NCBI RefSeq assembly: GCF_003966335.1
Contig: NZ_CP034549.1
Coordinates: 1,440,001 to 1,472,000, forward strand
Origin: Nonlabens ponticola
Lineage (GTDB): Bacteria > Bacteroidota > Bacteroidia > Flavobacteriales > Flavobacteriaceae
Length of the DNA: 32,000 bases
Reading direction: 5' to 3'
Positions 373 through 24,526 of this stretch are shown here, one piece after another. The translations under genes were made by a program, and so were the position numbers. Numbering within the stretch: position 1 is the first letter of the stretch; every line of letters begins with the position of its first letter. The notes beneath the pieces were generated by a model. It worked only from the letters and a program-made list of their open reading frames with translations, was not told where the DNA came from and did not search any database.

Positions 373-1440
373 TTATCTAAAGACAGATAAATCAATATTG
401 AGCGAGAAAACGTTGCTGTACAGCGCGGCACTTTGATCGCCTATATCAGTTAATGCATAATCTACTGATATGCCCTTGTACTTAAATCCTATCCCGATAT
501 TAGGCTGGAAAGTCACGTCATCATTGCCATCGAGTTGCTGTACATTCTGGAAATTACCGACTCCGGCACGCACAAATACCAAATCTGTATAACCGTATTG
601 CAATCCTAGGGCTGGCGTGGCGCTTATGGAACCGCTGGAGAATATGTCGTTAGTCTGTATAAATCGCATGTTTAAATCGACCTCGGCGAGAAGCACATGA
701 TCATAGTGAAATACAAACTCGCGAGCAATGCCTAGTTGTAGTTTTGGTAAGGTGATTTCAGTCGTTTCTGGAAGTTCTTGATTTTGGTTTTCTACGGCAT
801 CGCTTACCGTCGCAAACTCGTCCTCATCGATGGACCACGTATTATAGGTGGTTGTAATATCTCTTACCATCGCGCCAAATTTCCATTTACCACGCTCCAA
901 TTGAACACCTAGATCAATACCAAAGCCAATTGAACTCGCAAAATCACCTATCACGCGACGTATGATCTTGACGTTACCACCATATGAAAAACCGTCCAGT
1001 TTTGATTCACGAGCATAGGATGCAGTGACAGCCCAATCTGCGGTAGAAAAGGTAGAAATACGATCATAATTAATGTTTCCTTGATCGTCGATAAGTTGTG
1101 TCGTATTCAAAATATCATCGACTGAAAATCTTATTACGGAAAATCCTATGGCACTTTGATCATCAATAGGCATAGCGTATGCACCGTAGTTGTATTGTGC
1201 GATGTTGGCAAAATAGCTTGAGTGCATCAGCGAGATTTCCTTTTCTTCCAGCTGCATGAGTCCTGCTGGATTCCAGTAACCTGCGTTGACATTGCTGGTG
1301 CTGGCAACCACGGCGTTGCTCATTCCCAATGCTGCTGCATCGACACCTATGTTCAAAAATTCATTGGAATAGGCTCTTGAGGTTTGCGCTTTCGCGAAAG
1401 CGGAACAAACTAAAATTAAAATAACACTATAGTATCTCAA
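373..1440 (-). CDS. PorV/PorQ-family outer-membrane beta-barrel protein (T9SS-associated family)
   Basis: 355-aa ORF with a signal peptide (MRYYSVILILVCSAFA|KAQ). The N-terminal stretch FLNIGVDAAALGMSNAVVASTSNVNAGYWNPAGL resembles the PorV-family signature (xxDARxxGMGxxGVA...WNPAxL). The alternating beta-strand pattern and the C-terminal aromatic residue (..LSVFR) fit an OMP. Confidence 0.6.
   Translation of the reverse strand: MRYYSVILILVCSAFAKAQTSRAYSNEFLNIGVDAAALGMSNAVVASTSNVNAGYWNPAGLMQLEEKEISLMHSSYFANIAQYNYGAYAMPIDDQSAIGFSVIRFSVDDILNTTQLIDDQGNINYDRISTFSTADWAVTASYARESKLDGFSYGGNVKIIRRVIGDFASSIGFGIDLGVQLERGKWKFGAMVRDITTTYNTWSIDEDEFATVSDAVENQNQELPETTEITLPKLQLGIAREFVFHYDHVLLAEVDLNMRFIQTNDIFSSGSISATPALGLQYGYTDLVFVRAGVGNFQNVQQLDGNDDVTFQPNIGIGFKYKGISVDYALTDIGDQSAALYSNVFSLNIDLSVFR
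1388..1401. repeat. GCTTTCGCGAAAGC palindrome, copy 1 (extended CGCTTTCGCGAAAGCGGAA, 1387-1405)
   Basis: Perfect 14-bp palindrome. It lies inside the PorV-family gene at codons 14-18 and encodes AFAKA within the signal peptide (CSAFA|KAQ). Confidence 0.95.
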
Positions 1441-1557
1441 GTAAAGGCTCGTTGTGATGGCAAATATCTAGGTTTATCAATTAATAACTATGTTTTATAC
1501 GGGATATTGCCTCTGGCAGTTGCGTTTAAAGGATGATATTTATGCATATTTGTAGAA

Positions 1558-2319
1558 GTGAAGAAATACGTCCCAAATCTTATAACGCTAGGTAATTTAT
1601 TCTGTGGTTGTATTGCTGCCATGTTTGCCTTTGCTGATGATATAGTTTGGGCAGGTGTTTTTGTAGCAGGTGGTATTTTTCTTGACTTTTTTGATGGTCT
1701 CGCTGCTAGATTATTAAACGTTTCTAGTGAGCTAGGTGGCCAGCTGGATTCACTGGCAGATATGGTGACAAGCGGTCTTGTTCCTGGGATCGTGATGTTT
1801 CAGATGTTATCAGATTCACTAGGAGTCGCATTTTTGGATGATATGGCATTTACAGCAGCTGCAGACCAAGCGATGTTCCTACTTCCTATAAAAAATTACA
1901 TACCATTCATAGGCTTTTTAATTACGGCAGCTAGCTGTTACAGACTAGCAAAATTTAATATCGACACCAGACAAACCGATAGTTTTATAGGCTTGCCCAC
2001 GCCAGCTAATGCTATTTTTATCATATCACTTGCTATCATTCTAGATATCACAGAGGTTGATTGGATTTATAACCTACTGGATAACCCGTACTTCTTGCTT
2101 GCCATAACAGGCTTGAGCTGCTTCATGCTTAATGCTGAGCTGCCATTATTTGCCCTTAAGTTCAAGAATTTTGGGTTTAAAGGGAATGAGATACGTTGGA
2201 TCTTTGTCGCCGTATGTCTTTCCATGATAATACTGCTTAAGATTTATGCAGTGCCGTTGATTATCATATTGTACGTGGTAATGAGCGTGCTGAATTTGCA
2301 GTTGAATCACGCGAAGTAA
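1558..2319 (+). CDS. pssA: CDP-diacylglycerol--serine O-phosphatidyltransferase (CDP-alcohol phosphatidyltransferase family)
   Basis: The CDP-alcohol phosphatidyltransferase motif DFFDGLAARLLNVSSELGGQLDSLADMV (DGx2ARx8Gx3Dx3D) is present. The protein is multi-TM. The start codon is GTG. Confidence 0.8.
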   Translation: MKKYVPNLITLGNLFCGCIAAMFAFADDIVWAGVFVAGGIFLDFFDGLAARLLNVSSELGGQLDSLADMVTSGLVPGIVMFQMLSDSLGVAFLDDMAFTAAADQAMFLLPIKNYIPFIGFLITAASCYRLAKFNIDTRQTDSFIGLPTPANAIFIISLAIILDITEVDWIYNLLDNPYFLLAITGLSCFMLNAELPLFALKFKNFGFKGNEIRWIFVAVCLSMIILLKIYAVPLIIILYVVMSVLNLQLNHAK

Positions 2320-2324
2320 TCTTT

Positions 2325-3071
2325 CTACTCAAAAATCTTCTTCTTTCTCAATTCAAAGTTTTGTCCTAGATAGACGCGACGTACGACTTCGTCTTCGGCG
2401 AGTTCTTCTGGGTTTCCTTGTTTTAGGATTTTACCTTCAAACATGAGGTAAGTACGGTCTGTAATGGCGAGTGTTTCTTGAACGTTGTGATCGGTAATAA
2501 GAATACCAATATTCTTCTTAGTCAGCTGCGCGACTATACGTTGTATATCTTCTACCGCGACTGGATCCACACCAGCGAACGGCTCGTCCAGTAGTATAAA
2601 GTTAGGATTTGTCGCTAGTGCACGAGCGATCTCGGTGCGGCGTCGCTCACCACCAGAAAGTAGATCACCACGACGTTTGCGACGCTCTGTCAAACCAAAT
2701 TCCTCCAGTAACAGGTCGCAACGCTCACGCTGCTCTTTTTTAGAAAGATCAGTTAATTGTAATACACCTAGAATGTTATCCTCGATGGATAGCTTGCGGA
2801 AAACCGATGCCTCTTGAGCCAGATAACCTATACCATTTTGTGCGCGCTTGTACATGGCATATTTGGTAATATCTATATCGTTTAAAAATACTTTGCCGGC
2901 CGTAGGCTTTACCAGACCTACCATCATATAGAATGTGGTAGTTTTGCCGGCACCATTGGGTCCTAGCAAACCCACAATCTCGCCTTGATTCACCTCGAGC
3001 GATACGCCTTTTACGACTGGTCTGCCTTTGTAGGCCTTCTGTAAATTGTCTGCGGTAAGAATTTCTTGCAT
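2325..3071 (-). CDS. lptB: LPS export ABC transporter ATP-binding protein LptB
   Basis: 248 aa with canonical Walker [10 protein letters not shown], signature LSGGERRR, Walker [13 protein letters not shown] and H-loop ITDHN. Size and N-terminus (LxAxNLxKxYKGRxVV) are typical of LptB. Confidence 0.85.
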
Positions 3072-3151
3072 GTCACAAATTTAGTTTTTCAATTTTACTT
3101 TATGTTATCTATATCTAGAATTTACTAGCTTGCGACTATATTACAATAAGC

Positions 3152-3382
3152 ATGCAATTACCCAGATTTCTCATAGGTGATAACTCACAACATCCCGAAG
3201 ATATTTTTGTGATACATCTAGATTATCCACGATTTATCATTAATCTCAAAGATGATGAGCTGGAGTTTCTCGAGGATATCGATAAGGCAGACAAGGAAGA
3301 TCTAGCCGAGGAAACTAAAAACCTAGTAGAAGAAGCCAGCAGATTCTATGATACAGAGTCTGAATTTTACGAAAATGAATGA
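3152..3382 (+). CDS. Small acidic hypothetical protein (76 aa)
   Basis: Clean ORF in an otherwise empty gap. Its stop overlaps the ATG at 3375 of the next gene by 8 nt (coupling). I recognise no family. Confidence 0.45.
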   Translation: MQLPRFLIGDNSQHPEDIFVIHLDYPRFIINLKDDELEFLEDIDKADKEDLAEETKNLVEEASRFYDTESEFYENE

Positions 3383-3944
3383 TGTAAAAGAGCTGGATTG
3401 GGATGCTACCGTTGCGCTCAATGATTGGGGAAACGACGGCGTCGATCTGTTTTTCAATATCATCACTCACAAACTATATGCGATACCTTTTTATCTGGTG
3501 TTGCTTTATTTTTTTTACCAGAAACTAGGCTGGAAGAACACATTGATTTCTTTGCTAGCTATAGCAATTTTAATAGCGGCAAGTGACCAGATTGCAAATC
3601 TTTTCAAAGATGGATTTGAGCGTTTGCGACCTTTTAGAGAACCAGCGCTGGATGGTATAATTTCTAAAGTGGGCCGCAGTGGTGGTACCTATGGCTTTTA
3701 CAGTGCACACGCCAGTAGCGCGATAGGTCTAGCGACATTTGTTTGTTTGCTTTTATGGCAATCGCAGCGAGTTTTATGCGTCGTAACCATCATTTGGGCT
3801 TTTTTAGTAGCCTACAGCCGTGTTTATTTAGGACTTCACTATCTAGGTGATGTGCTTATGGGCGGCATTATGGGCTTATTACTAGGTATATTGATTTTTA
3901 GAGGTTTTGCTTTCGCGAAAGCAAAATACAGAAAAACCAACTAG
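3375..3944 (+). CDS. PAP2-family phosphatase (undecaprenyl-diphosphatase/lipid phosphatase-like), membrane
   Basis: PAP2 tripartite motif: KDGFERLRP, YSAHAS (PSGH-like) and SRVYLGLHYLGD. The protein is multi-TM. I prefer the ATG at 3375 (MNDVKEL...) over the track start at 3348, which sits inside the upstream ORF. Confidence 0.75.
   Translation: MNDVKELDWDATVALNDWGNDGVDLFFNIITHKLYAIPFYLVLLYFFYQKLGWKNTLISLLAIAILIAASDQIANLFKDGFERLRPFREPALDGIISKVGRSGGTYGFYSAHASSAIGLATFVCLLLWQSQRVLCVVTIIWAFLVAYSRVYLGLHYLGDVLMGGIMGLLLGILIFRGFAFAKAKYRKTN
3909..3922. repeat. GCTTTCGCGAAAGC palindrome, copy 2 (perfect 22-bp palindrome TTTTGCTTTCGCGAAAGCAAAA, 3905-3926)
   Basis: It lies inside the PAP2 gene at codons 188-192 of the track ORF and encodes AFAKA, 7 residues from the C-terminus. 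Confidence 0.95.
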
Positions 3945-3956
3945 CAAATAATATGA

Positions 3957-4832
3957 TCAATTGGTCATCACCAGCTCTATAGCAAGTTCATAATCATTGC
4001 CTTTATTGAAGTTATTCTCAAGAGAAAGCCATTTCCCACCTGAATATCTACTCAAGCTAGAATTCCTGAATTGCCTATCACGTACGGCGATTTTAGGTTC
4101 GTATGAAATACCGTCCTTTCGTTTTTTACCATCGCTATCAGTATAGGTATAGGTATGCTTATTCTCATCTATGATAAGAAATTCATATACAATCATCAAT
4201 CCAGTATCTGGAAATCTAATATTCAATGAGTCCAGATCAACTTCGGTGATTTTCCTTCCCTTTTTAGCGTGACCGTAAATACGGTCGTCATGCAAGGGAA
4301 ATTGTTTCAAACTATCATTTCCAGCATAGAGTTGTATCTCAAATTTGGCATCCTTGATATCACTGCTGGTGACCAGTTTTAATTTGGAGAGGAAAGGAGT
4401 GTTGTGATAAGCAGAATCCTTGGGTATAATCATCCCAATCTTCCATGGTTTCAAACCACATGATATATAGAGACTCGATTTTCTGCTTTTAATTGCGCCG
4501 TAAGATTTGATTTCCGTGCCTTTAGGTTTCTCAATTATGACATCCTCAAGCTGTGTTAGGCTTTCTTTTAAACTGATCGTTTGATCAAGCTCGTCAGCAG
4601 CAATTTCAAGAGATTGATACCCTAAGGCACTCAATATTAGAGTATCTTTTTCTTTAATCATAATCCCAAAACGGCCGCTTGCATCGCTCGTTGTACCAGT
4701 GTTAGAATTTTTAATCCAAATATTTACTAATGGAATACCAGCACCAGTGCTATCATCTACCACCTGAAATCCTGATTGAGCCGCTAGGCTATAGGTGCAA
4801 AAGCTGATGAGAATCACAAATAAGCTCTTCAT
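3957..4832 (-). CDS. Secreted protein with N-terminal carboxypeptidase-regulatory-like (CarboxypepD_reg) domain
   Basis: Signal peptide MKSLFVILISFCTYSLAAQ. The pattern VVDDSTGAGIPLVNIWIKNSNTGTTSDASGRFGI...LSALGYQS is typical of CarbopepD_reg_2 domains. The remainder is unassigned. Confidence 0.55.
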   Translation of the reverse strand: MKSLFVILISFCTYSLAAQSGFQVVDDSTGAGIPLVNIWIKNSNTGTTSDASGRFGIMIKEKDTLILSALGYQSLEIAADELDQTISLKESLTQLEDVIIEKPKGTEIKSYGAIKSRKSSLYISCGLKPWKIGMIIPKDSAYHNTPFLSKLKLVTSSDIKDAKFEIQLYAGNDSLKQFPLHDDRIYGHAKKGRKITEVDLDSLNIRFPDTGLMIVYEFLIIDENKHTYTYTDSDGKKRKDGISYEPKIAVRDRQFRNSSLSRYSGGKWLSLENNFNKGNDYELAIELVMTN

Positions 4833-5866
4833 TAAGATTGTTTTAGAATAGCATCTGCTGCATCAAAAGCTGTTATTTCTCGCTTTAAAATCTGTTGTTC
4901 CAAATTTTTAATTCTTGAAACTACATCTGTTTTATGGTAAAAGTCAGACTTCAATCGATCCTCGATGGTTTGATGGAACCAGTAAAGTTCTTGTTGCTCT
5001 CTGCGTTTTTGAAAGTGATGGCTCTCCTTTGTTTGGCTTTCAAAATCGGTAAGATGTTCATGTATATCCTCAATTCCAGATGAATTGATAGCGCTACATG
5101 TAAATGCTCTTACTAGGAATTGATGAGATTTTACTGGCAGCATGTGCACGGCATTTTGAAACTCTCGTCTAGCCCGTTGTGCGGCTGATTCATTGTCACC
5201 ATCTGCCTTGTTGATCACGATAGCATCTGCCATTTCCATGATGCCACGCTTGATACCTTGTAAATCATCGCCGGCGCCGGCAAGTTTGAGCAGTAGAAAA
5301 AAGTCTGTCATACTGTGAACAGCGGTCTCGCTTTGACCTACACCAACTGTTTCAACTATGATAAAATCATAGCCAGCTGCCTCACATAAAATAATCGCCT
5401 CTCGAGTCTTGCGAGCCACACCACCTAATGTTGCACCGGCAGGACTAGGTCTGATAAAGGCTTTATCGCTCTTGACCAGCTCTTCCATACGGGTCTTATC
5501 GCCTAGAATACTACCACGCGATTGACTACTGGATGGATCAATCGCCAGCACGGCAACCTTTTTATCTGCAGTAATCAATTGAATTCCTAGCGCTTCAATA
5601 AATGTAGATTTACCAACGCCTGGCACGCCTGTTATTCCTAATCTAAATGATTTTCCAGAGTGAGGTAGGCTTTTTTTAAGTAACGCTTTCGCGAAAGCGG
5701 AATCGCCACCAGCAGTACTCTCAACCAAAGTAATTGCCTTGCTCAAGGCACTGATGTCGCCCTTTCTAAGATTGTAAAAAAGCAAATCCACGTCCAGATC
5801 CTTTTTAATGAATCGATGACGTGGATTGATGTGTGAGGTAGACAAATTGCGACTTTTAGGATGCAT
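4832..5866 (-). CDS. meaB: Methylmalonyl-CoA mutase-associated G-protein chaperone MeaB/ArgK (LAO/AO transport system ATPase family)
   Basis: P-loop GITGVPGVGKSTFIEALG, then AVLAIDPSS...GSILGDKTRM, VETVGVGQSE and INKADG (NKxD). Its stop TAA overlaps the downstream ATG by 1 nt (TAATG at 4830-4834). Confidence 0.85.
   Translation of the reverse strand: MHPKSRNLSTSHINPRHRFIKKDLDVDLLFYNLRKGDISALSKAITLVESTAGGDSAFAKALLKKSLPHSGKSFRLGITGVPGVGKSTFIEALGIQLITADKKVAVLAIDPSSSQSRGSILGDKTRMEELVKSDKAFIRPSPAGATLGGVARKTREAIILCEAAGYDFIIVETVGVGQSETAVHSMTDFFLLLKLAGAGDDLQGIKRGIMEMADAIVINKADGDNESAAQRARREFQNAVHMLPVKSHQFLVRAFTCSAINSSGIEDIHEHLTDFESQTKESHHFQKRREQQELYWFHQTIEDRLKSDFYHKTDVVSRIKNLEQQILKREITAFDAADAILKQS
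5685..5698. repeat. GCTTTCGCGAAAGC palindrome, copy 3 (extended CGCTTTCGCGAAAGCGGAA, 5684-5702)
   Basis: It lies inside meaB at codons 57-61 and encodes AFAKA (DSAFAKALL). Confidence 0.95.
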
Positions 5867-5897
5867 AAAGATCGCATTTTATCTCAATAGGAGATGA

Positions 5898-7538: not shown

Positions 7539-7552
7539 GCTTTCGCGAAAGC
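7539..7552. repeat. GCTTTCGCGAAAGC palindrome, copy 4 (extended TTACGCTTTCGCGAAAGCTA, 7535-7554)
   Basis: Intergenic. It sits between the secA stop (7562) and the secA terminator (7498-7525). Confidence 0.95.
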
Positions 7553-7561: not shown

Positions 7562-10500
7562 CTAGTATTTATCCAACACCCATTCACCTTTATTAATCAA
7601 TGGGATTGCAGCTTTGTACTTACAATCCTTTGACTCACCTGTCATGATGTTTTTGATAGTGACTTTATCGTTGCGACCTATCTTAGGCTGCTCGCGTGTA
7701 ATGGTCTCAGTCACCGGTTGACGTTGACGGCTGGCACCAGCACCTACGGCTCTTGATTGAGCTGCTCGCTCATCACTGTTTAAGACTTCATCCTTGCTAG
7801 TGGTCGTCTTTTCAGCCTTTTGTTGGCGCGCTTCCTGGATGGCCTGTGAATCTCTAGTAGGCAAATCTCCTTTAAATAAGAAACCAATTACCTCTTTATT
7901 CACCTTGTCAATCATCTCACGGAATAGCTCAAAAGCTTCAAACTTATAGATTAATAAAGGGTCTTTTTGCTCGTGAACGGCTAGCTGTACGCTTTGCTTC
8001 AATTCATCCATTTTACGCAAGTGCGTTTTCCATGAATCATCGATGATTGCTAGCGTGATGTTCTTTTCAAAATCGTTTACGAGCGTCTTTCCTTCACTTT
8101 CATAAGCATCCTTAAGGTTGGTAGAGACGTTGATGGTCTTGATACCATCAGTGAATGGAACCGCGATACGCTCATAATTGCGTTCATCATTTTCTACCAC
8201 ATTCTTAATTACTGGGAATACCTCTTGCGCGGTGCGCTCCATTTTTTCCTTGTAATGCTGGTAAGCAGCCTTGTAAACAATACCAGCAATTTGTTGATCG
8301 CTTTTAGATTTAAATTCTTCTTCGCTGATAGGACTGCTCATTGAGAAGTAGCGTATCAGTTCAAAGTCAAAGTTTTTAAAGTCTTGCGAGATTTTATTAG
8401 TCTGCGCGATATTTTCTGAAATATCATAGATCATGTTAGCAAGATCCACGGCAAGTCGATCACCGTTCAAGGCATTGAAACGACGCTTGTAAATAACTTC
8501 ACGCTGTGCGTTCATGACATCATCATATTCCAATAAGCGCTTACGTACACCAAAGGCGTTTTCCTCTACTTTTTTCTGTGCTCGCTCGATGGACTTGGAT
8601 ATCATGGAATGCTGGATCACTTCGCCTTCCTTCATTCCTAGTCTGTCCATGGTCTTGGCCATACGCTCAGAGCCGAACAATCGCATCAAGTTATCTTCAA
8701 GCGACACGTAGAATTGTGAACTTCCTGGGTCTCCTTGACGACCAGCACGACCACGCAACTGTCTGTCTACACGACGAGAGTCATGACGCTCTGTACCAAT
8801 AATGGCCAGACCACCAGCTTTTTTAACCTCGTCTGATAATTTGATGTCGGTACCACGACCTGCCATGTTGGTAGCGATGGTGATTTGTCCAGCGTTACCA
8901 GCGTCTGCAACGATCTCTGATTCTTTCTTGTGTTGTTTTGCATTCAATACGTTGTGCTCTATACCAGCACGTTGTAGTGTTCTACTCAATAGCTCAGATA
9001 TATCAACAGATGTAGTACCTATAAGAACTGGCCTTCCTTGTTCTTTAAGTCTTGTAACTTCTTCTATAACGGCACCGTATTTTTCACGCTTAGTTTTATA
9101 AACAAGATCTTGACGGTCATCACGAGCGATAGGTCTATTGGTAGGAATTTCCACAACATCAAGTTTGTAGATTTCCCAGAATTCACCAGCCTCGGTTACT
9201 GCAGTACCTGTCATACCAGACAACTTGCGATACATGCGGAAGTAATTCTGCAGCGTGATGGTCGCAAATGTCTGCGTGGCATCCTGAATTTTTACGTTTT
9301 CCTTGGCCTCAATCGCCTGGTGCAATCCATCGCTGTATCGACGACCATCCATGATACGACCTGTTTGCTCATCAACGATCATCACTTGCTCCTCGCTGGT
9401 AGTTTTAACGCCACCAGTCGCAGCGTCGCGAACTTTCTTGTCTTTGGACATGACGACATATTCTGTATCACGTTCAAATAGGGTATAGGCTTTAAGTAAT
9501 TGGTTAAGCGTGTGAATACGCTCTGACTTTACCGCAAATTCACGGAAGAGTTCTTCCTTCTTCTCAGCTTCTTCTTCCTTGCTTAATCCTTCACTCTCGA
9601 TGCGACCTATTTCTAGACCTACTTCTGGCATTACAAAAAAGTCTGGATCGTCCTCACCAGATAGGAACTCAATACCTTTATCGGTAAGCTCTACCTGATT
9701 GTTTTTCTCGTCAATGACAAAGTAAAGTTCTGCATCTACTTTAGGCATCTCACGATTATTATCCTGCATGTAAAAGTTCTCAGTCTTTTGCAGCAATTGC
9801 TTGATTCCTTCTTCACTCAAGAATTTTATGAGAGCCTTATTTTTAGGTAATCCTCTATAAACACGCAATAGCTCAAGTCCACCTTCTTTAGTGTCGCCTT
9901 CACTGATAAGTTTTTTAGCTTTAGCCAGCGTCTGTACCAGTTGCTTGCGCTGTACACTAACAATATTTTCTACGGGTCTTTTAAGTACATCAAATTCCTG
10001 ACGATCACCTTCTGGTACGGGTCCAGAGATAATCAAAGGTGTACGCGCATCATCAATCAAGACAGAGTCAATCTCATCTATGATCGCATAATTGTGCTTG
10101 CGTTGCACAAGATCCTTGGTGCTGTGCGCCATATTATCACGCAGGTAGTCAAAACCAAACTCATTATTGGTTCCGTAAGTGATATCTGCTAGATAGGCTT
10201 GCCTTCTGGAATCAGAATTAGGCTTGTGGTAATCAATACAGTCTATGGAAAGACCGTGAAATTCAAAAAGAGGTCCTATCCAGGCGCCATCACGCTTTGC
10301 CAGGTAATCATTCACGGTAACTACGTGTACACCGTTACCAGTTAAGGCATTTAAATAAACAGGCAAGGTTGCCACAAGCGTTTTACCTTCACCAGTTTGC
10401 ATCTCGGCAATTTTGCCTTTGTGCAATGCTGCACCACCTATAAGTTGTACATCATAGTGAATCATGTCCCAGGTTACTGCTTTACCAGCGGCATCCCATG

Positions 10501-10975
10501 AGTTGTGCCATATGGCGTGATCACCATCTAGTTCTACATAGTCTTTCTCGCCGCTCAATTCTCGATCACGAGCAGTTGCCGTGACTCTAATTTCTGGGTT
10601 GTGGAAAAAGCGCTTTGCTGTTTCTTTCATCACGGCAAATGCCTCTGGCATGATCTCATGCAAGACATCTTCTGCCTGCTGGTATGCCACATCTTCTAGC
10701 GCGTCGATACGTTCATAGATTTCCTCACGAGCGTCGATATCTTCTTCCTTGTCAGCATCTTCTTTAAGAGTGGATATCTGTTGTAGTGTTTCCGCTTTCG
10801 CGAAAGCTATCTTCTCTTTAAACTCTACCGTTTTATGACGCAGTTCATCAATGCTCAATGCCTCTAGTGACGGTTCAATGGCGAGTACTTGATCAACATA
10901 AGGTCGCAGCTCTGCCACATCCTTTTTTGATTTATCGCCTACAAATATTTTTAAAACGGAATCTAATAGTCCCAT
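7562..10975 (-). CDS. secA: Preprotein translocase ATPase SecA
   Basis: 1137 aa. Walker [19 protein letters not shown]-like [21 protein letters not shown], and motifs [31 protein letters not shown] and [12 protein letters not shown]. Confidence 0.97.
10794..10807. repeat. GCTTTCGCGAAAGC palindrome, copy 5 (extended TTCCGCTTTCGCGAAAGC, 10790-10807)
   Basis: It lies inside secA at codons 57-61 and encodes AFAKA (KIAFAKAET). Confidence 0.95.
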
Positions 10976-13748: not shown

Positions 13749-14774
13749 TTATACGATACCTTCTCTTATAACATCGTGAATGTGCACCACACCAGCATAA
13801 TTGCCATTTGCATCTACTGCGATAAGCTGCGATACATTAAGTTCTTCCATGAGCTCGCGTGCCTGCACGGCCATACTATCTACTGTTATCGTTTTAGGCT
13901 GGCCGCTCATGATATCTGTAGCTGTTAGACTATCGATATCCTTACCGCTGGACAGCATGCGACGCAAATCACCATCGGTAATAATGCCAACTAGTTGATT
14001 GTTTTCTACTACAGCTGTCATGCCTAGCATGTGTTCTGAAATGGTGACGATTACCTCACGCAAACTAGTCGCTGGCGATACGGCAGGTTTAGGACGTTGT
14101 TCTACTAGATCTTGAACGCGCAGATATAATTTTTTACCTAGCGCGCCACCTGGATGATAGCGTGCAAAATCCTGATCAGTAAATCCTTTGAGCTCTAATA
14201 AGCAAATAGCTAATGCATCACCAATGACAAGCTGCGCCGTCGTGCTAGTGGTGGGCGCTAGCCCATTGGGACACGCCTCTTCTTGAATAGGCGCGTGCAG
14301 GACATAATCTGCTTCTTGACCTAAGAATGATTCTCGATGACTTGTAATGGCGACAAGCTTGTTGTCAAAATTCTTGATCAGTGGCACGAGCACTTTGATC
14401 TCTGGCGTGTTTCCGCTTTTTGAGATACAGACTACCACGTCGTTTTTTTGAACGATGCCTAGATCTCCATGAATCGCATCTGCTGCATGCATGAATATGG
14501 CTGGCGTGCCCGTGCTGTTCATGGTAGCCACGATTTTCTGGGCGATGATAGCACTCTTGCCTATACCAGTAATGATGACTCTTCCTTGCGAGGAGTGTAT
14601 GTGTTGTACCGCTTTCGCGAAAGCGGAATCAATAGAATTCTCTAACTCTTTAATAGCATTTGCCTCGATGCGCACAGTGCGTCGAGCCACTTGCAAGATT
14701 TGATCTACGGTATTCAAAAAAGCCTGCGGATTTAAAGTGTTTGTGTAAAAAGAATTTAATCGTAAATTGAGCAT
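13749..14774 (-). CDS. kpsF: Arabinose-5-phosphate isomerase KpsF/GutQ family (SIS domain plus tandem CBS domains)
   Basis: GRVIITGIGKSAIIAQKIVATMNSTGTPAIFMHAADAIHGDLG (SIS domain) and a C-terminal CBS pair. I prefer Met13 of the track ORF (14774), because the 14810 start would overlap the divergent recQ start. Confidence 0.85.
   Translation of the reverse strand: MLNLRLNSFYTNTLNPQAFLNTVDQILQVARRTVRIEANAIKELENSIDSAFAKAVQHIHSSQGRVIITGIGKSAIIAQKIVATMNSTGTPAIFMHAADAIHGDLGIVQKNDVVVCISKSGNTPEIKVLVPLIKNFDNKLVAITSHRESFLGQEADYVLHAPIQEEACPNGLAPTTSTTAQLVIGDALAICLLELKGFTDQDFARYHPGGALGKKLYLRVQDLVEQRPKPAVSPATSLREVIVTISEHMLGMTAVVENNQLVGIITDGDLRRMLSSGKDIDSLTATDIMSGQPKTITVDSMAVQARELMEELNVSQLIAVDANGNYAGVVHIHDVIREGIV
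14611..14624. repeat. GCTTTCGCGAAAGC palindrome, copy 6 (extended CGCTTTCGCGAAAGCGGAA, 14610-14628)
   Basis: It lies inside kpsF and encodes AFAKA (DSAFAKAVQ). Confidence 0.95.
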
Positions 14775-14803
14775 ACAAAGATAAACAAAAAGCGAGCAGC
14801 CGT

Positions 14804-16993
14804 ATGGCATTTAAGCAGTCTGAATTAGAAGCGCATCTCAAGAAATATTTTGGTTTTGATCAGTTTAGAGGACTGCAAAAACAAGTGATTACCTCATTAC
14901 TCAATAAGGAAGATGTCTTTGTGATAATGCCTACTGGTGGCGGTAAATCCTTGTGTTATCAATTGCCTGCCTTGATGCAGGATGGTACAGCGATCGTCGT
15001 GTCACCGCTCATCGCACTCATGAAGAATCAAGTGGATGCCATACGTGGTATTTCTGACAATGATGGTGTGGCGCACGTACTCAACAGTAGCTTGACTAAA
15101 GGTGAGGTGCAGCAAGTCAAGGAAGACATCACTAATGGAGTTACCAAGTTATTGTACGTTGCACCAGAATCGCTCACTAAGGAAGAATATGCAGAGTTTT
15201 TAAAAGAGCAGAATATATCATTTCTTGCTGTCGATGAGGCTCATTGTATTAGTGAATGGGGTCATGATTTCAGGCCTGAATACCGCAACTTGCGCAAGAT
15301 CATTGATCGCATAGGCGATGAGATTCCCATCATAGGACTTACCGCAACGGCAACGCCCAAGGTTCAGGAAGATATCCTCAAGAATTTACAAATACAGGAT
15401 GCCACCACTTTTAAGGCATCGTTTAATAGACCCAATCTCTATTATGAGGTGCGACCTAAAACCGCACAGGTAGATGCAGATATCACACGTTTTATCAAGC
15501 AAAACGAGGGCAAGTCTGGCATCGTGTACTGCTTGTCTCGCAAGCGCGTAGAAGAGCTAGCTCAAGTACTGCAGGTAAACGGCATCAAGGCTGTTCCCTA
15601 TCATGCTGGACTGGACGCCAAAACCAGAGCGCTGCATCAGGATCAATTCCTGATGGAAGATGTGGATGTGGTGGTGGCGACTATCGCCTTTGGTATGGGA
15701 ATCGACAAGCCCGATGTGCGATTTGTCATTCACCATGACATTCCTAAAAGTATTGAATCCTATTATCAAGAAACAGGTCGTGCAGGTCGTGATGGTGGTG
15801 AAGGTCACTGTCTTGCCTACTATGCCTATAAGGACATTGAAAAGCTTGAAAAATTCATGAGCGGTAAACCCATTGCCGAACAGGAAATAGGACACGCGCT
15901 CTTGCAGGAAATGGTAGGCTACTCAGAAACTAGCATGAGTCGCAGGCAGTATATCCTACATTATTTTGGCGAAGAGTTTGATCCAGCCACTGGTCTAGGT
16001 GGCGATATGGATGACAATATGCGCAATCCCAAACCACAGCGCGAGGCCATTGATGACGTCAAGAAATTAATCAAGGTAGTTGATGCCGCTGGCGAGCGCT
16101 ACAAGGCCAAAGACATAGTGCGCATCCTTATAGGAAAGAGCAACGCCATGATCTCAAGCCACAAGTTAGAGGAACAAGATTTCTTTGGTAGCGGTAAGGA
16201 TAAAGAGGCGTCCTATTGGACGGCACTTATACGCCAGGTTCTCGTAGCGAGATACATAAGAAAGGACATTGAATCCTATGGCACCATCAAGATGACCGAC
16301 GCTGGTCGTGCGTTCCTTAAATCAGGAACCAGCTTCATGATGAGCGACGACCATACCTATCATGATGATGCACCATCAGGCAATGCTGCCGTTGCTGGAT
16401 CCATGGATGCCACGCTGGTAAAGATGCTCAAAGAGCTGCGTAAGAAAGTGGGCAAGCAAAAAAACGTGCCGCCCTACGTAGTCTTTCAGGATCCATCCAT
16501 TGATGATATGGCGACAAAATATCCATTGACCATAGAGGAGCTGGCAAATATTCATGGTGTAGGCGATGGTAAGGCAAGGAAATTTGGTAAACCATTTATC
16601 GAGCTCATCAATCGATATGTCGAGGATAACGACATCTCGCGTCCCGACGAGATGGTCATTAAATCCACAGGTGCAAAAAGTGGTAATAAGCTTTATTTTA
16701 TCACCAGTATCGACCGTAAACTAAGTTTTGAAGACATCGCCGACGCCAAGGGCATGGAGATGGACGAGCTTATCAAGGAACTGGAGAGCATCGTTTACAG
16801 CGGTACCAAACTCAACATAAGCTACTGGGTTGATGAGATGCTGGATGACGACCAGCAAGAAGAACTTCACGAGTACTTTCTAGAGGCAGATAATGACAGC
16901 ATCGATGCCGCGATGGAAGAATTTGACGGCGATTATGACGATGATGAACTGCGCTTGTATCGCTTGAAGTTTATAAGCGAGGTAGGTAACTAG
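14804..16993 (+). CDS. recQ: ATP-dependent DNA helicase RecQ
   Basis: YFGFDQFRGLQ, MPTGGGKSLCYQLPA, DEAHCISEWGHDFRPEY, TATAT, and IAFGMGIDKPDVRFVIHHDIPKSIESYYQETGRAGRDG. An RQC region and a C-terminal HRDC region follow. Confidence 0.95.
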   Translation: MAFKQSELEAHLKKYFGFDQFRGLQKQVITSLLNKEDVFVIMPTGGGKSLCYQLPALMQDGTAIVVSPLIALMKNQVDAIRGISDNDGVAHVLNSSLTKGEVQQVKEDITNGVTKLLYVAPESLTKEEYAEFLKEQNISFLAVDEAHCISEWGHDFRPEYRNLRKIIDRIGDEIPIIGLTATATPKVQEDILKNLQIQDATTFKASFNRPNLYYEVRPKTAQVDADITRFIKQNEGKSGIVYCLSRKRVEELAQVLQVNGIKAVPYHAGLDAKTRALHQDQFLMEDVDVVVATIAFGMGIDKPDVRFVIHHDIPKSIESYYQETGRAGRDGGEGHCLAYYAYKDIEKLEKFMSGKPIAEQEIGHALLQEMVGYSETSMSRRQYILHYFGEEFDPATGLGGDMDDNMRNPKPQREAIDDVKKLIKVVDAAGERYKAKDIVRILIGKSNAMISSHKLEEQDFFGSGKDKEASYWTALIRQVLVARYIRKDIESYGTIKMTDAGRAFLKSGTSFMMSDDHTYHDDAPSGNAAVAGSMDATLVKMLKELRKKVGKQKNVPPYVVFQDPSIDDMATKYPLTIEELANIHGVGDGKARKFGKPFIELINRYVEDNDISRPDEMVIKSTGAKSGNKLYFITSIDRKLSFEDIADAKGMEMDELIKELESIVYSGTKLNISYWVDEMLDDDQQEELHEYFLEADNDSIDAAMEEFDGDYDDDELRLYRLKFISEVGN

Positions 16994-18012: not shown

Positions 18013-18340
18013 CGTCGCCTGCTTTGATCTTCAGATTACAAGATAATAGATATAAATCGATATTGTTATTCTTGGTTGGTTTCGCGTTAAGGATCGCAGC
18101 GGCATCCTTTTAATGGCTACCGTAGCCATAAAAAGATATAGCGTAGAGCCTGGCCAAGCGATGAGCGAGGAAACGCCCTTAAAATAATCCCATAGGATAA
18201 ACTGCTTATTATCAGGTGATTTATAAGTTCTCTAAATACTAGTTACGCAAACGTTGTAGTAAATGGCACGATCGTTGAAATCTACCTAGCAAGCGGAAGC
18301 CGAAAAGCTACTAGAGTAGGCAGATCTTAAACTTATAGTC

Positions 18341-18940
18341 ATGAAAAAACTATTACTATTTATGGCAGCTGGTCTCATGATGACCACTGCACAGGCAACC
18401 GACCAAAACATTGAAGGGCCGATAGACGGTTTTTCTAATCGCTACAGATGGATGGAACCGGTAACGTTCTCCATGAATCAAGCGGACTTTTATGTGTATC
18501 CAGATGGGCACATCGAGTTTGATCTGCGACGTAACAATCAAATCTATCACTACTCAAGACGTGCGGTAGATCGCCGTAGAGGCTTGCGCGGCAGACAGGT
18601 GCGATACAATCGTCAAGGCTTGCCGATACGGGTGAACAATACACAAATCTTTTATGATAGACGTGGTCGTGTAACGCAGATAGGTAGGGTAGATGTTGGG
18701 TACCATCGCGGCACGCTGGATTATGTAGGTGGCCTGGATGTGAGATATCACCGCAATGGTCAATTGCTGGCCGCTCGCGGACAGGTGAAGTTCTGGAAAA
18801 ACTATGGTAGGAACGATCGTAGATTCCGCAACTTTGGAAAGATCGATAAGCGCCATTATAATGATGTTGCCTATAACGATCGCGGTCGTGGCAATAACAA
18901 GTATAAAGTCAAGGATAAAAAACGTAGAAGAGACTTCTAG
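18341..18940 (+). CDS. Secreted, extremely arginine-rich protein with YD-like repeats (199 aa)
   Basis: Signal peptide MKKLLLFMAAGLMMTTAQA. I count about 32 Arg in 199 aa. Four repeats resemble YD/RHS-type units: VRYNRQGLPIRV, IFYDRRGRVTQIGRV, VGYHRGTLDYVGGL and VRYHRNGQLLAARGQV. A strong terminator follows the gene. Confidence 0.6.
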   Translation: MKKLLLFMAAGLMMTTAQATDQNIEGPIDGFSNRYRWMEPVTFSMNQADFYVYPDGHIEFDLRRNNQIYHYSRRAVDRRRGLRGRQVRYNRQGLPIRVNNTQIFYDRRGRVTQIGRVDVGYHRGTLDYVGGLDVRYHRNGQLLAARGQVKFWKNYGRNDRRFRNFGKIDKRHYNDVAYNDRGRGNNKYKVKDKKRRRDF

Positions 18941-19035: not shown

Positions 19036-19057
19036 CACTTTTAAAAATTGATTTGAT

Positions 19058-19990
19058 ATGAACGATGGTATTTACGCACATTTTGACACGAGTAAAGGCG
19101 AGATTCTTGTGCAATTACACTATAAACGCACACCAGGAACGGTAGGAAATTTTGTTGCCCTTGCCGAAGGTAATCTAGAGAACGACGCCAAGGCTCAAGG
19201 AACGCATTATTACGACGGTCTTAAATTTCACCGTGTGATTCCTGACTTTATGATTCAAGGTGGTGATCCACAAGGAACTGGCGCTGGTGGCCCAGGTTAC
19301 AAGTTTGATGATGAATTTCATCCAGAATTGCGTCACGACGGGCCTGGTGTCTTGAGTATGGCAAACGCTGGTCCTGGAACTAATGGATCCCAGTTTTTTA
19401 TCACGCATGTGGAGACGGCATGGCTGGATGACAAGCACACCGTTTTTGGTAAGGTGGTAGAAGGCATGGATGTCGTCAATAAGATCGAGCAAGGTGACGA
19501 GATCAAATCGGTCACCATCAAACGACAAGGCGCCGATGCCGAGGCTTACAACGCCGTGGAATCTTTCAGAAAATTTGAAGGCGCTGCAAAGCTGCGTGAA
19601 GAGCAAGCTAGAAAACAAGCTGATCAGGAACTGGACGAGATCGCTGCTGGCTTTGATAAAACCGATAGCGGTTTGCGCTACAAGATCATCAACAAGGGTG
19701 ATGGTAAAAAAGCCAATAAGGGCGATCAGGTAAGTGTGCACTATAAAGGTATGTTGCCAGATGGTAAGGTATTTGACTCTAGTTTTGAACGTAAGAAACC
19801 TATTGATTTTCAGGTAGGTGTAGGCCAGGTCATCGCTGGTTGGGATGAAGGAATCACCATGTTGCAGGTAGGCGATAAGGCGCGGTTTGTGATCCCATCG
19901 CACCTAGGTTACGGCAGTGCTGGCGCTGGTGGCGTGATACCGCCTAATGCGACGCTGGTTTTTGACGTAGAGTTAGTGGACGTTAAGTAG
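19058..19990 (+). CDS. Dual-domain peptidyl-prolyl cis-trans isomerase: N-terminal cyclophilin fused to C-terminal FKBP
   Basis: The cyclophilin part has [47 protein letters not shown] and HTVFGKV. The FKBP part has [19 protein letters not shown]...[54 protein letters not shown]. Confidence 0.9.
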
Positions 19991-20012
19991 TCGATCCTTT
20001 AATGATATTATA

Positions 20013-20044: not shown

Positions 20045-20053
20045 GTGGGTTAC

Positions 20054-20067
20054 GCTTTCGCGAAAGC
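20054..20067. repeat. GCTTTCGCGAAAGC palindrome, copy 7 (extended GTTACGCTTTCGCGAAAGCTAAC, 20049-20071)
   Basis: Intergenic. It lies 10 nt after the PPIase terminator (20013-20044) and 38 nt before the next ATG. Confidence 0.95.
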
Positions 20068-20104
20068 TAACTAGCATCCTTATATTTAAACTTTTGAAAA
20101 GCTT

Positions 20105-21196
20105 ATGAAGTTTCTAGTACAATTTTGCCGCTGTTTTGTTGGTATACTGTTCATTTTTAGTGGATTGGTAAAGCTCAATGATCCTGTAGGATTCTCGTTT
20201 AAGTTAGAAGAATACTTTAGCGCTGCGGTATTGGGTCTTGAGTTTTTGCAGCCATTTGCATTGCCGCTGGCTATATTTCTGGTGATTCTTGAAGTAGTGA
20301 TGGGTGTGATGCTTATACTAGGATTTCAGCGCAGGTTTACCGTATGGTCGCTGCTGTTGATGATCTTGTTCTTTACCTTTCTCACATTTTATTCGGCTTA
20401 CTTCAATAAGGTGACCGATTGTGGCTGTTTTGGTGATGCGATACCGCTGGTGCCATGGGAAAGTTTTGCCAAGGATGTGTTCCTACTCATCATGATTGTC
20501 ATCTTGTTCATGAACGTTTCCTTGATCAAACCATTCTTTTCAAAATTCACATCGATGATAGTTACATTATTGGTGACGATTGCATGTTTTGGATTGGCTT
20601 ATTATGTGTTGATGCATTTACCGGTGCTGGACTTTAGAGCTTTTAAAATAGGAACCAACATCGATCAAGCGATGCAGGAAGATCCTAATCGACCAGACGT
20701 GTATGGATTTGACTGGTACTATGAGGTAGATGGAGAAGAAGAAATAGTTACTACTAGCGGCTTACCACCAGAAGGAAGACCTAATTATTCTAAAGTGGAA
20801 ACACGACTACTAGAAAAAGGATATGAGCCACCTATCCACGACTTTTCTATTATGCAAGGCGATCAGGATTATACGCAAGAATATTTGAATAAGGAAAAGG
20901 TAGTATTTGTCATCATGTACAGACTGGTACAATCAGAAAGTGATGGCATGTACAAATTACCAGAGTTTATTCAAAACGCTCAAAATAATGGATACGAAGT
21001 CATCGCGCTCACAGCATCAGGCCCTGATGATATTAACGAGGCAAAAGAGAATTACAACCTAGATATAGAATTCTACACTACAGATGCCACGGCGCTTAAA
21101 ACCATGATACGTTCTAATCCTGGAATCATGGTGGTTGAAAATGGTGTGATCACACAAAAAGCGCACTGGAATGACCTGGAAGAAATTTCTCTATGA
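20105..21196 (+). CDS. DoxX/MauE-like integral membrane protein with a C-terminal thioredoxin-fold-like soluble domain
   Basis: The N-terminal part has 4-5 TM segments, with FIFSGLVKLNDPVGF and a DCGCFGD motif typical of MauE/DoxX-like proteins. The C-terminal ~170 aa are soluble and look TlpA/thioredoxin-fold-like, but I see no CxxC there. Confidence 0.55.
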   Translation: MKFLVQFCRCFVGILFIFSGLVKLNDPVGFSFKLEEYFSAAVLGLEFLQPFALPLAIFLVILEVVMGVMLILGFQRRFTVWSLLLMILFFTFLTFYSAYFNKVTDCGCFGDAIPLVPWESFAKDVFLLIMIVILFMNVSLIKPFFSKFTSMIVTLLVTIACFGLAYYVLMHLPVLDFRAFKIGTNIDQAMQEDPNRPDVYGFDWYYEVDGEEEIVTTSGLPPEGRPNYSKVETRLLEKGYEPPIHDFSIMQGDQDYTQEYLNKEKVVFVIMYRLVQSESDGMYKLPEFIQNAQNNGYEVIALTASGPDDINEAKENYNLDIEFYTTDATALKTMIRSNPGIMVVENGVITQKAHWNDLEEISL

Positions 21197-22266: not shown

Positions 22267-22295
22267 GCTTTCTAGAGGTCGTCACCTTATTTCTC

Positions 22296-22303
22296 TATCT
22301 TTG
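22296..22303 (+). promoter_or_regulatory. Candidate -7 promoter box (TATCTTTG) upstream of the lipoprotein/tpiA/prmA block
   Basis: TATCTTTG matches TAnnTTTG and lies 20 nt upstream of the ATG at 22324. I did not see a clear -33 TTTG. Confidence 0.3.
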
Positions 22304-22323
22304 AGACAAAAATTACAGTAACT

Positions 22324-22932
22324 ATGAACACGAGAATATTACAACCTGTTTTAATGCTTTTATTAGTCTTCACTTCCTGCGTGGGAACTTCTCAAAACGA
22401 AGAGGTAAAAGAGGACTTCAATAAATACATTAGCGCGATACAGGATAAAGAATACGAGAAAGCATTGGATCTTACAATCCCATCCATTTTTCATTTAGTT
22501 TCCAGAAAACAATTATCACAAAGCTGGAGAGCTGCTGTGTCTACTCCAGGTATGGACATGATCATAGGTGACGTAGAAATTTTAGCAGTCAATGAATTAC
22601 AGGACGTAGAGGATACTGCCTACAAGACGCTAGAGTACAATCAAAATCTCAAAATGAGATTTGACGAGAAAACAATGAATGATAGCGGCGCTTCTCAAGA
22701 TGAATTTTTGAAACAAACCGAAACGGCCATCAAGGCACAATTTGGTGAAGAGAATGTATCACTAGATCCAAATACCATGTACTTTACGATCAAGTCTAAC
22801 AAAAAAGTACTAGCCGCGCAACCAGAAGATGCTGAACACTGGCAGTTTATGGTGCTAGAAAAAGGAAATGAGAACTATATCAAGCAACTCATTCCAGAAA
22901 CTACTTATAACGAGGTGTACAATGAGAAATAA
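22324..22932 (+). CDS. Hypothetical lipoprotein (202 aa)
   Basis: Lipobox VFTSC. No recognised family. The 3' end overlaps the tpiA start by 11 nt. Confidence 0.5.
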   Translation: MNTRILQPVLMLLLVFTSCVGTSQNEEVKEDFNKYISAIQDKEYEKALDLTIPSIFHLVSRKQLSQSWRAAVSTPGMDMIIGDVEILAVNELQDVEDTAYKTLEYNQNLKMRFDEKTMNDSGASQDEFLKQTETAIKAQFGEENVSLDPNTMYFTIKSNKKVLAAQPEDAEHWQFMVLEKGNENYIKQLIPETTYNEVYNEK

Positions 22933-23674
22933 TATACTAGCAGGAAACTGGAAAATGAACTGTGACCTACCGGGAACACAGTCGCTTATTGCAGAAATTC
23001 AAGCCGAAGGTATTGATAACCTAGATTGCGAGATCATGGTCGCGCCTTCCCATCTATTTCTTTACGCCGCTTTCAACGCCAGCCTCAATTCGCCTATTGA
23101 AGTCGTGGCGCAAAATGTATCACAACATCACAAAGGTGCTTACACCGGTGAGGTTTCTATCGATATGTTGCAAAGCGTTGGTATAAAGACTGTCATCATA
23201 GGTCATTCTGAGCGTCGCGATATTTTCAAGGAAAACGATGACCAGCTTAGAGGAAAAGTATCAGCCTGTATTAAAGAAGGTATGCGAGTGATTTTTTGCT
23301 GTGGTGAGCATCTTGATGAACGCAATAGTGGTAATCACTTTAAGACCGTAACAAACCAAGTAGAAAAAGCACTGTTTCAGCTAGAGGACAAAGACTGGAA
23401 ACAGATCGTCATTGCCTATGAACCAGTCTGGGCCATAGGAACTGGTGAGACCGCATCACCAGAACAGGCTCAGGAAATGCACGCGCATTTACGCACATTT
23501 ATTGAGAATAAATACGGTGGCAAAGTCGCTAGCAACACCAGCATTTTATATGGCGGTAGTGTAAAACCGGCCAACGCACGTGAGATTTTTGCAAAGCCAG
23601 ATGTTGATGGTGGTCTAGTAGGCGGCGCATCGCTGGATGCCAACTCTTTTGTGCAAATCGCACGTTCTTTCTAG
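22922..23674 (+). CDS. tpiA: Triosephosphate isomerase
   Basis: ILAGNWKMN, VIIGHSERR, IAYEPVWAIGTG and YGGSVKPANA. I prefer the ATG at 22922 (MRNNILAGNWKMN) over the track start at 22868. Confidence 0.93.
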   Translation: MRNNILAGNWKMNCDLPGTQSLIAEIQAEGIDNLDCEIMVAPSHLFLYAAFNASLNSPIEVVAQNVSQHHKGAYTGEVSIDMLQSVGIKTVIIGHSERRDIFKENDDQLRGKVSACIKEGMRVIFCCGEHLDERNSGNHFKTVTNQVEKALFQLEDKDWKQIVIAYEPVWAIGTGETASPEQAQEMHAHLRTFIENKYGGKVASNTSILYGGSVKPANAREIFAKPDVDGGLVGGASLDANSFVQIARSF

Positions 23675-23677
23675 AAT

Positions 23678-24526
23678 ATGAGTAAGGTTACAGACCAGCT
23701 ATATGTAGAGTACACGTTTACGGTAATGCCTGTGCAGCCTTGGGTCGATGTGCTTGCCGCGCAATTAGGTGAGCTAGGTTTTGAGAGCTTCATGGAGACT
23801 GAGACAGGACTTTTGGCTTATGTGCTGGAAGATATCGACAGCGATGACCTAGTAAAACAGTTGGACTTGTGGCAGTATGATGATGTTGAGTTAGCTTTCG
23901 CGAAAGCAAACATACCACCAACCAACTGGAATCATGAATGGGAAAAGAACTTTGAACCTATCACCGTGCAAGACCGCTGCGAGGTGCGAGCGCCATTTCA
24001 CGAGTCCAAAGGCCTGGAATATGACATCGTGATAGAGCCAAAAATGAGTTTTGGCACGGGTCACCATCAAACAACGCACATGATGATCGAGCATCTACTC
24101 GAGTTAAATCCTACTGATCAAAAGGTACTGGATATGGGTAGCGGTACTGGGGTTCTCGCCATTCTTGCAAGGTTGACAGGTGCAGCGGCGGTAGATGCGA
24201 TAGATATTGACACGTGGTGTTATGAAAATGCACTTGAAAATGTGCAGCGCAATCAAGTCGATAAGGTTGAGGTTATTCTGGGTGGTGCAGAGCAGCTTGG
24301 AGATCGCTACTATGATTTAATCATTGCAAATATCAACCGCAATATCCTACTGGCCGACATTCCAACTTATGCTGGTTGTTTGTCGAGCGGTGGCAAAATC
24401 TTGCTAAGCGGTTTTTATCTAGAAGATCTTGACCAGATAAAAGCAGCTTGCACACAGGTAGGACTAGAATACATATCGCATAGACAGCGCGATCAATGGG
24501 TGTCGCCATTGTTCATCAAAAAGTAA
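23678..24526 (+). CDS. prmA: Ribosomal protein L11 methyltransferase PrmA
   Basis: NWNHEWEKNFEPI, IEPKMSFGTGHHQTT, and the SAM motif VLDMGSGTGVLAI. Confidence 0.88.
   Translation: MSKVTDQLYVEYTFTVMPVQPWVDVLAAQLGELGFESFMETETGLLAYVLEDIDSDDLVKQLDLWQYDDVELAFAKANIPPTNWNHEWEKNFEPITVQDRCEVRAPFHESKGLEYDIVIEPKMSFGTGHHQTTHMMIEHLLELNPTDQKVLDMGSGTGVLAILARLTGAAAVDAIDIDTWCYENALENVQRNQVDKVEVILGGAEQLGDRYYDLIIANINRNILLADIPTYAGCLSSGGKILLSGFYLEDLDQIKAACTQVGLEYISHRQRDQWVSPLFIKK
23894..23907. repeat. GCTTTCGCGAAAGC palindrome, copy 8
   Basis: It lies inside prmA at codons 73-77 and encodes AFAKA (ELAFAKANI). Confidence 0.95.

Follow-up and report, generated by a model that had tools for sequence, protein, structure and literature searches.

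Genomes seldom contain hyper-abundant words, and every case known so far has been instructive. The uptake signal sequences (USS) of Pasteurellaceae and the DNA uptake sequences (DUS) of Neisseriaceae revealed sequence-specific DNA uptake, and HIP1, a palindrome (GCGATCGC) that is highly iterated in cyanobacteria, has been a puzzle for 30 years, for which a link to transformation is now emerging. The binding sites of Noc (NBS) and SlmA (SBS), as well as parS and matS, are palindromes of 12–16 bp, mostly intragenic, which are bound as duplexes by dimeric proteins, and their arrays comprise tens of degenerate sites, often within one region of the chromosome. Enrichment and conservation of HIP1 extend to all reading frames as well as to non-coding DNA (PMC5861425); its formation involves no indels, and an enhancing effect on transformation has been reported (bioRxiv 10.64898/2026.06.24.733823). 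For the frame bias of uptake sequences a "common peptide" explanation has been discussed, and a correlation with codon preference was found (PMC2817400). Here, we describe a palindromic word of 14–16 bp (14-mer core GCTTTCGCGAAAGC) that occurs nine times in a 32 kb stretch of the Nonlabens ponticola chromosome (contig NZ_CP034549.1, positions 1,440,001 to 1,472,000; hereafter the window). The constraint on the exact palindrome acts at the DNA level, in all reading frames and in intergenic sequence, which we regard as practically certain, and the word is specific to a clade comprising Nonlabens, Dokdonia and related uncultured Flavobacteriaceae. The literature searched contained no description of the word, nor of such a repeat in Nonlabens or Dokdonia.

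The word shares with HIP1 a perfectly palindromic sequence, an over-representation by orders of magnitude, an enrichment that covers each of the three frames as well as non-coding DNA (47, 19 and 20 coding copies in the three frames, and 9 of 34 copies intergenic), an origin by substitution without indels, and a conservation of orthologous sites beyond neutral expectation. However, the two sequences are unrelated, the word measures 14–16 bp instead of 8, belongs to Bacteroidota rather than cyanobacteria, and is found about once per 4.4 kb, compared with up to more than once per kb for HIP1. HIP1 furthermore holds the sites of cognate orphan methyltransferases, of which none is known for the word, and the short core of the word, TCGCGA, is not itself enriched. 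With USS and DUS the word has in common the presence of hundreds of copies in related genera and their absence from outgroups, a majority of coding copies combined with an intergenic excess, an origin by point mutation where the protein is poorly conserved, and a frame bias tied to the ordinariness of the encoded peptide or of its codons (PMC2817400). Conversely, the uptake bias of USS and DUS has been demonstrated experimentally, whereas that of the word is putative, and the frame usage of the word follows amino-acid composition and not codon preference. Like NBS, SBS, parS and matS, the word is palindromic (16 bp) and mostly intragenic, with a binding protein that is postulated here; unlike them, it is nearly invariant and distributed over several hundred sites along the whole chromosome. 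The repetitive extragenic palindromic sequences and bacterial interspersed mosaic elements (REP/BIME) are likewise short repeated palindromes, but REPs are extragenic and imperfect, span 20–40 bp and form stable hairpins, whereas the word is mostly intragenic and perfect and forms a weak hairpin. Thus, the word resembles HIP1 and the uptake sequences but on defining features belongs to neither, and it constitutes a further case of a hyper-abundant genomic word, for which a bias in reading frame is a known type of observation.

In the window, exact copies of the 14-mer start at nine positions, listed here with gene names supported by Pfam and with the strand of the host gene.

1388–1401: PorV-like open reading frame (ORF; 373–1440, minus strand), codons 14–18, AFAKA, ending the signal peptide (LILVCSAFAKA, followed by QTS)
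3909–3922: PAP2 ORF (3348–3944, plus strand), codons 188–192 of 198, AFAKA, in the C-terminal tail
5685–5698: MeaB (4832–5866, minus strand), residues 57–61, AFAKA, in a predicted helix
7539–7552: intergenic, 10 nt 3' of the SecA stop codon
10794–10807: SecA (7562–10975, minus strand), residues 57–61, AFAKA
14611–14624: KpsF-like SIS/CBS protein (13749–14810, minus strand), AFAKA, close to the N-terminus
20054–20067: intergenic, between a peptidyl-prolyl isomerase (PPIase) gene (19058–19990) and a MauE/DoxX gene (20105–21196)
23894–23907: PrmA (23678–24526, plus strand), residues 73–77, AFAKA, in a predicted beta-strand
29417–29430: TolC-like OEP protein (29295–30803, plus strand), LSRK, directly after the predicted signal peptide

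Dinucleotide shuffles of the window gave no copies, against the nine observed. No variant with one, two or three mismatches was found in the window, and all occurrences of TTCGCGAA and of GCGAAAGC lie within copies of the word. TCGCGA outside the copies was found 6 times, compared with about 5 expected from composition by our own estimate. Seven of the nine copies fall in long ORFs and two are intergenic (7539 and 20054). Six of the seven coding copies are framed GCT TTC GCG AAA GC (AFAKA) and the TolC-like copy is read as LSRK. These counts, together with the peptides quoted for them, agree exactly with the initial annotation, which had also correctly noted host genes on both strands. Its gene names find support in Pfam, although the PorV match lies under the cut-off (24.8 vs 27 bits), and the span of 1388–23907 that it had assigned to the copies ends before the TolC copy at 29417. 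The probable start codon of the TolC-like protein is the ATG at 29340, which places this copy directly after the signal peptide and still in coding sequence. In homologue searches the SecA, PrmA and MeaB proteins of the window matched N. ponticola proteins at 100% identity; an exact-protein look-up of the SecA ORF had returned no entry.

The full unit is a 16-mer, CGCTTTCGCGAAAGCG, which is a perfect palindrome built on the 14-mer core and extends more weakly to TAC...GTA (extended form written as TACGCTTTCGCGAAAGCGTA). The flanking C at position −1 and G at +1 are present in 78–87% of the copies, coding and non-coding alike, and position −3 is a T in 67–77%. In DNA regions fetched by SecA homology, i.e. 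chosen independently of the word and referred to below as unbiased loci, the Nonlabens sample held 27 copies, 21 of which were the full 16-mer, and the word was the sole over-represented dispersed word. The other repeated k-mer of this sample is an 8-bp tandem repeat, (GTGGTAAT)x11, at 20727–20814 of locus L239 (Nonlabens sp. YIK11), directly 3' of an apolipoprotein N-acyltransferase gene and absent from the window. Similarity around the copies ends about 3 flanking bases out, so that the word is not part of a longer mobile element; for the intergenic copies such an element was explicitly considered and ruled out on the same grounds. Imperfect copies are scarce: 146 exact copies were counted in loci ascertained through the word, compared with 13, 14 and 17 carrying one, two and three mismatches, and 34 exact copies in the unbiased loci compared with 5 carrying one mismatch, which corresponds to an overall exact to one-mismatch ratio of approximately 7–11:1.

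A scan of one genome per species, covering 185,579 species, returned at least 120 stretches with the word. Among the matches listed, about 85 stretches belong to Dokdonia, Nonlabens and uncultured Flavobacteriaceae, often with two or three copies per 8 kb, and the remainder are single copies in unrelated, mostly GC-rich genomes. Per 23.4 kb of SecA region, five further Nonlabens species had 6, 6, 6, 5 and 2 exact copies, and the unbiased Nonlabens DNA, window included, held 34 exact copies in 149 kb, i.e. about one per 4.4 kb, so that several hundred copies per genome are to be expected. Codon usage would predict approximately 0.0014 copies in 168,000 codons, as compared to about 90 observed. 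The positions are spread along complete chromosomes, for example at 0.88, 1.38, 2.15 and 2.82 Mb in Dokdonia R86516. In the annotated unbiased loci 9 of 34 copies (26%) are intergenic, an enrichment of about 3-fold, by our own estimate, over the intergenic share of such genomes, and the non-coding share in the ascertained loci is 23–33%. The SecA regions of Salinimicrobium and Winogradskyella contained neither exact copies nor near variants, nor any related "dialect" words, in these small samples of about 23 kb each. In two uncultured Aquimarina genomes the word is present and likewise flanked by CCG...CGG (L071 at 7055; L110 at 157 and 1090), and in one Aquimarina genome two copies fall within a single 409-aa ORF; given these copies, the word may extend beyond Dokdonia and Nonlabens at lower density.

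Viral sequences were likewise inspected. The Nonlabens phages P12024S and P12024L (L242 and L243; 35.7 kb each) contain no copy of the word; they are near-identical and hence count as one observation. TCGCGA is also absent from both, against about 3–4 expected in each by our own estimate, which may hint at avoidance of an NruI-type restriction site. A scan of IMG/VR gave mostly single matches, compatible with chance by a rough estimate, and a few contigs with two or three copies.

That the DNA word and not the peptide is the object of constraint is apparent from the way in which the peptide is spelled. Among 214,000 residues scanned, 70 of 71 AFAKA peptides were encoded by the word itself, and the single exception was a one-mismatch variant. 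At the SecA site, 13 of 48 Nonlabens sequences have AFAKA and the others ASAKA, AAAKA, AQAKA or ALAKA, while other genera have AEARK, KDALK or QEALK with no difference in length. In PrmA, AFAKA is present in 88 of 88 Nonlabens-type homologues and is replaced by TYNTK, SHTKS or NYSKA in outgroups; in MeaB it is present in 44 Nonlabens homologues, with EQAKK, KQAKE, TLAQE and similar peptides in outgroups. The initial annotation had attributed the pattern to a DNA word instead of a protein motif, and had proposed to look for AFAKA with other codons in distant orthologues. The attribution is borne out by the use of three frames and intergenic DNA, the uniform codons and the frozen synonymous sites described below, and the distant orthologues of SecA, PrmA and MeaB proved to lack the peptide. 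An origin of the copies by insertion is ruled out by ungapped orthologue alignments at the sites; in SecA, PrmA and MeaB the ungapped columns imply that the copies were made by substitutions that changed amino acids. In L239 and L241, ASAKA of SecA is encoded by GCTTCCGCGAAAGC, a single T/C transition away from the word (site 10169), and the AFAKA/ASAKA polymorphism among close Nonlabens species, as read from these alignments, indicates repeated gain or loss at this site. New copies thus come about through point substitutions in variable parts of a protein whose sequence is already near the encoded peptide, as in the change of A-x-A-K-A to AFAKA in SecA.

Once formed, the copies persist at orthologous positions in species whose synonymous sites are otherwise nearly saturated. 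The orthologous genes of N. ponticola share 67–75% nucleotide identity with those of five other Nonlabens genomes and one related metagenome-assembled genome, and identity at four-fold degenerate sites is 0.32–0.43, i.e. near saturation. Within copies of the word, however, 58 of 58 synonymous third positions were identical, compared with 0.43–0.53 outside, and 15 of 19 orthologous word sites (79%) were letter-perfect, compared with 0.7–4% of control 14-mers from the same genes. Wherever an orthologue was aligned, the PorV-like, PAP2, MeaB and KpsF sites are exact: the PorV-like site (1388) in L239, L241 and L015, the PAP2 site (3909) in L239, L240, L241 and L015 although the protein is just 51–84% identical, the MeaB site (5685) in L239, L240 and L241, and the KpsF-like site (14611) in L239 and L241. 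At the place of the intergenic copy at 7539, L239 has a version with one mismatch. Between Dokdonia and Nonlabens a single orthologous pair was examined, and the site was not shared.

The reading frames were assigned for the 85 loci of Dokdonia, Nonlabens and relatives among the matches listed, using the longest stop-free frame of each copy in ORFs of at least 200 aa. The 86 coding copies comprise 47 AFAKA, 19 LSRK and 20 FRES (55, 22 and 23%), and a stricter call, demanding 50 coding-like stop-free codons on each side, gave 31, 11 and 13 in the same order. The two main genera agree, with 20/6/8 in Dokdonia and 19/7/8 in Nonlabens, and since only about 5 site pairs are orthologous duplicates the tally is not inflated. 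A uniform use of the frames (33/33/33) is rejected (P = 1.5e-4). An expectation from codon usage (65/2/33) fails likewise (P ~ 1e-39), as LSRK is much commoner than predicted; this frame, with its rare codons TCG and CGA, is the most enriched relative to the codon expectation, and rare codons are thus no obstacle to the word. An expectation from amino-acid composition, applied at codon level only to the partial flanking codons, predicts 63/23/14 and fits roughly (chi-square P = 0.035). Chance copies in unrelated genomes gave 13/4/8, with an equal ranking. Frame usage thus roughly tracks how ordinary each peptide is by amino-acid composition, and in comparison with uptake sequences the data match the "common peptide" account rather than the correlation with codon preference (PMC2817400). 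AFAKA is the commonest frame, at about 55%, without privileged status. The initial annotation had claimed that copies are almost always read as AFAKA and had invoked a strong purifying filter for the least harmful frame. The former does not extend beyond the window, where the 6 of 7 is a small-sample effect (P = 0.007 under uniform usage, P = 0.10 given the clade-wide 55%), and the latter is not needed to account for a split close to amino-acid composition. More generally, a frame bias as striking as 6 of 7 can arise from amino-acid composition alone.

The structural setting of the peptide is also diverse. AFAKA, which had been described as helix-compatible, does lie in a helix in the MeaB model, but the PrmA model places it in a beta-strand, and it is found in the C-terminal tail of PAP2 and, in at least 7 of 57 AFAKA copies, as the A-x-A end of a signal peptide (window 1388; L015 5484; L026 4855; L057 5241; L089 1667; L100 6347; L103 3355). 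At these seven positions the word coincides with a genuine feature of the protein.

The predicted folding of the word as single-stranded DNA is weak, at −2.1 kcal/mol for the 14-mer (z = −0.2) and −6.3 kcal/mol for the 20-mer, and the hairpin of the copy at 20054 reaches −4.4 kcal/mol (z = −0.8). The perfect palindrome, the weak hairpin and the all-or-none sequence requirement in combination point most plausibly to a duplex that a dimeric protein recognises, and the word would accordingly be the double-stranded recognition site of a highly sequence-specific DNA-binding dimer. Such a site, present genome-wide, could act as a tag that marks self DNA, and biased uptake together with recombination would then be the drive behind the formation and restoration of exact copies. 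The explanation that we place first, while holding it tentatively, is that the word may be a self-DNA tag for the preferential uptake or recombination of conspecific DNA, in the manner of USS and DUS and of HIP1 as now reported. In its favour we count the abundance and exactness of the word, the constraint at the DNA level, the origin of copies by substitution, the spread over whole chromosomes, the lack of copies in the Salinimicrobium and Winogradskyella SecA regions and in the two Nonlabens phages, and the parallels with HIP1 and with the intergenic enrichment of USS (PMC2817400). Its fuller version, in which a dimeric receptor of marine Flavobacteriaceae would read the word as an uptake or self-recognition sequence and the word would be the first sequence-specific DNA-exchange signal in Bacteroidota, is more doubtful. 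Several observations weigh against an uptake tag. No competence or methyltransferase gene was found among the window genes by Pfam. USS and DUS are asymmetric 9–12-mers, present about once per kb with many imperfect copies, whereas the word is a 16-bp palindrome found about every 4.4 kb and seldom imperfect. The strong conservation of each site is as compatible with selection acting site by site, for example in a structural binding array, as it is with drive. Finally, we know of no report of sequence-specific uptake in Bacteroidota.

Selection on individual sites is the essence of a possible, if doubtful, alternative, in which the copies would form an array of the Noc–NBS, SlmA–SBS, parS or matS type, bound by a protein that organises the chromosome or associates with the nucleoid, without any exchange of DNA. 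A perfect 16-bp palindrome is typical of dimeric DNA-binding proteins, the low hairpin energy makes recognition of the duplex likelier than recognition of a structure, and the position-specific conservation between species is very high. The spacing of the copies in the window is also more regular than random (coefficient of variation (CV) 0.39, P = 0.008, minimum gap 1776 bp), and a chromosome-organising role has been proposed for HIP1 on similar grounds (PMC5861425). However, the even spacing is not significant in the three syntenic Nonlabens loci L239–L241, and some sites turn over within the genus, as illustrated by the F/S polymorphism in SecA. Several hundred near-identical sites throughout the genome are moreover difficult to reconcile with the known arrays of tens of degenerate sites. 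As to position within genes, none of the seven coding copies in the window is more than 72 codons away from a gene end, with six near the N-terminus and one near the C-terminus (P ~ 0.001 under uniform placement, a rough estimate). As a rule for the clade, N-terminal placement was not sustained, since the excess is only mild (25–33 copies in the first 80 codons vs about 19 expected).

An improbable explanation is that the word is itself functionless and results from a ratchet of sequence-specific repair or methylation, in which an enzyme that recognises the word biases mismatch correction in its favour, as Elhai proposed for HIP1 (PMC4390886). The extreme excess of exact over one-mismatch copies and the origin of copies by substitution would both follow from such a process, and the over-enrichment of the rare-codon LSRK frame relative to codon expectation looks as if coding cost were ignored. 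On the other hand, TCGCGA outside the word stays near expectation (6 vs about 5), so that no short core is being driven, and one-mismatch versions persist uncorrected at orthologous sites (SecA in L239 and L241, and the intergenic site downstream of SecA in L239). In addition, an exact specificity of 14–16 bp far exceeds that of known methyltransferase or very-short-patch repair sites.

The palindromic sequence, its roughly 3-fold enrichment in intergenic DNA and the copy placed 10 nt past the SecA stop codon might instead suggest an element that acts as a hairpin, be it in RNA or in DNA that is single-stranded, for example a terminator, a REP-like sequence or a stabiliser of mRNA, which we consider very unlikely. 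The 3' half of the word on either strand, GCGAAAGC, is what we take to be the unusually stable DNA mini-hairpin of Hirao and colleagues, to which the nearest-neighbour model used here assigns no stability. Still, about 74% of the copies are intragenic and found in both gene orientations, and the predicted stability of the 14-mer and the 20-mer is low. A terminator scan called none of the copies, the one at 7539 after SecA included, no T-tract is present 3' of the copies, and no Rfam family matched at any copy. Least tenable is the idea that AFAKA is a selected protein motif, e.g. a signal-peptidase AXA site, with the DNA word as its by-product: although some AFAKA copies do end signal peptides, where A-x-A is functional, the idea is already refuted by the single codon spelling in 70 of 71 peptides and by the 45% of coding copies in the other two frames, and it is further opposed by the roughly one quarter of all copies that are intergenic, by the conserved C and G outside the peptide and by distant orthologues without AFAKA.

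Elsewhere in the window, two RNA elements score above their Rfam gathering scores on the plus strand, a Flavo-1 RNA at 18079–18159 (53 bits) and a DUF805b cis-regulatory motif at 18290–18322 (40 bits), both just 5' of an unannotated ORF (18341–18940).

The word provides a second palindrome, unrelated to HIP1 and much longer, which in another phylum bears the same signatures (use of all frames, lack of indels, and conserved orthologous sites amid nearly saturated synonymous positions) and can thus serve as an independent test system for hyper-abundant words. Since the word measures 16 bp and is nearly invariant, a pull-down, or phylogenetic profiling that compares Nonlabens and Dokdonia with other Flavobacteriaceae, should readily reveal its putative protein partner. 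If the word does mark self DNA for uptake, Nonlabens and Dokdonia would be naturally transformable and would exchange DNA preferentially with their own kind.

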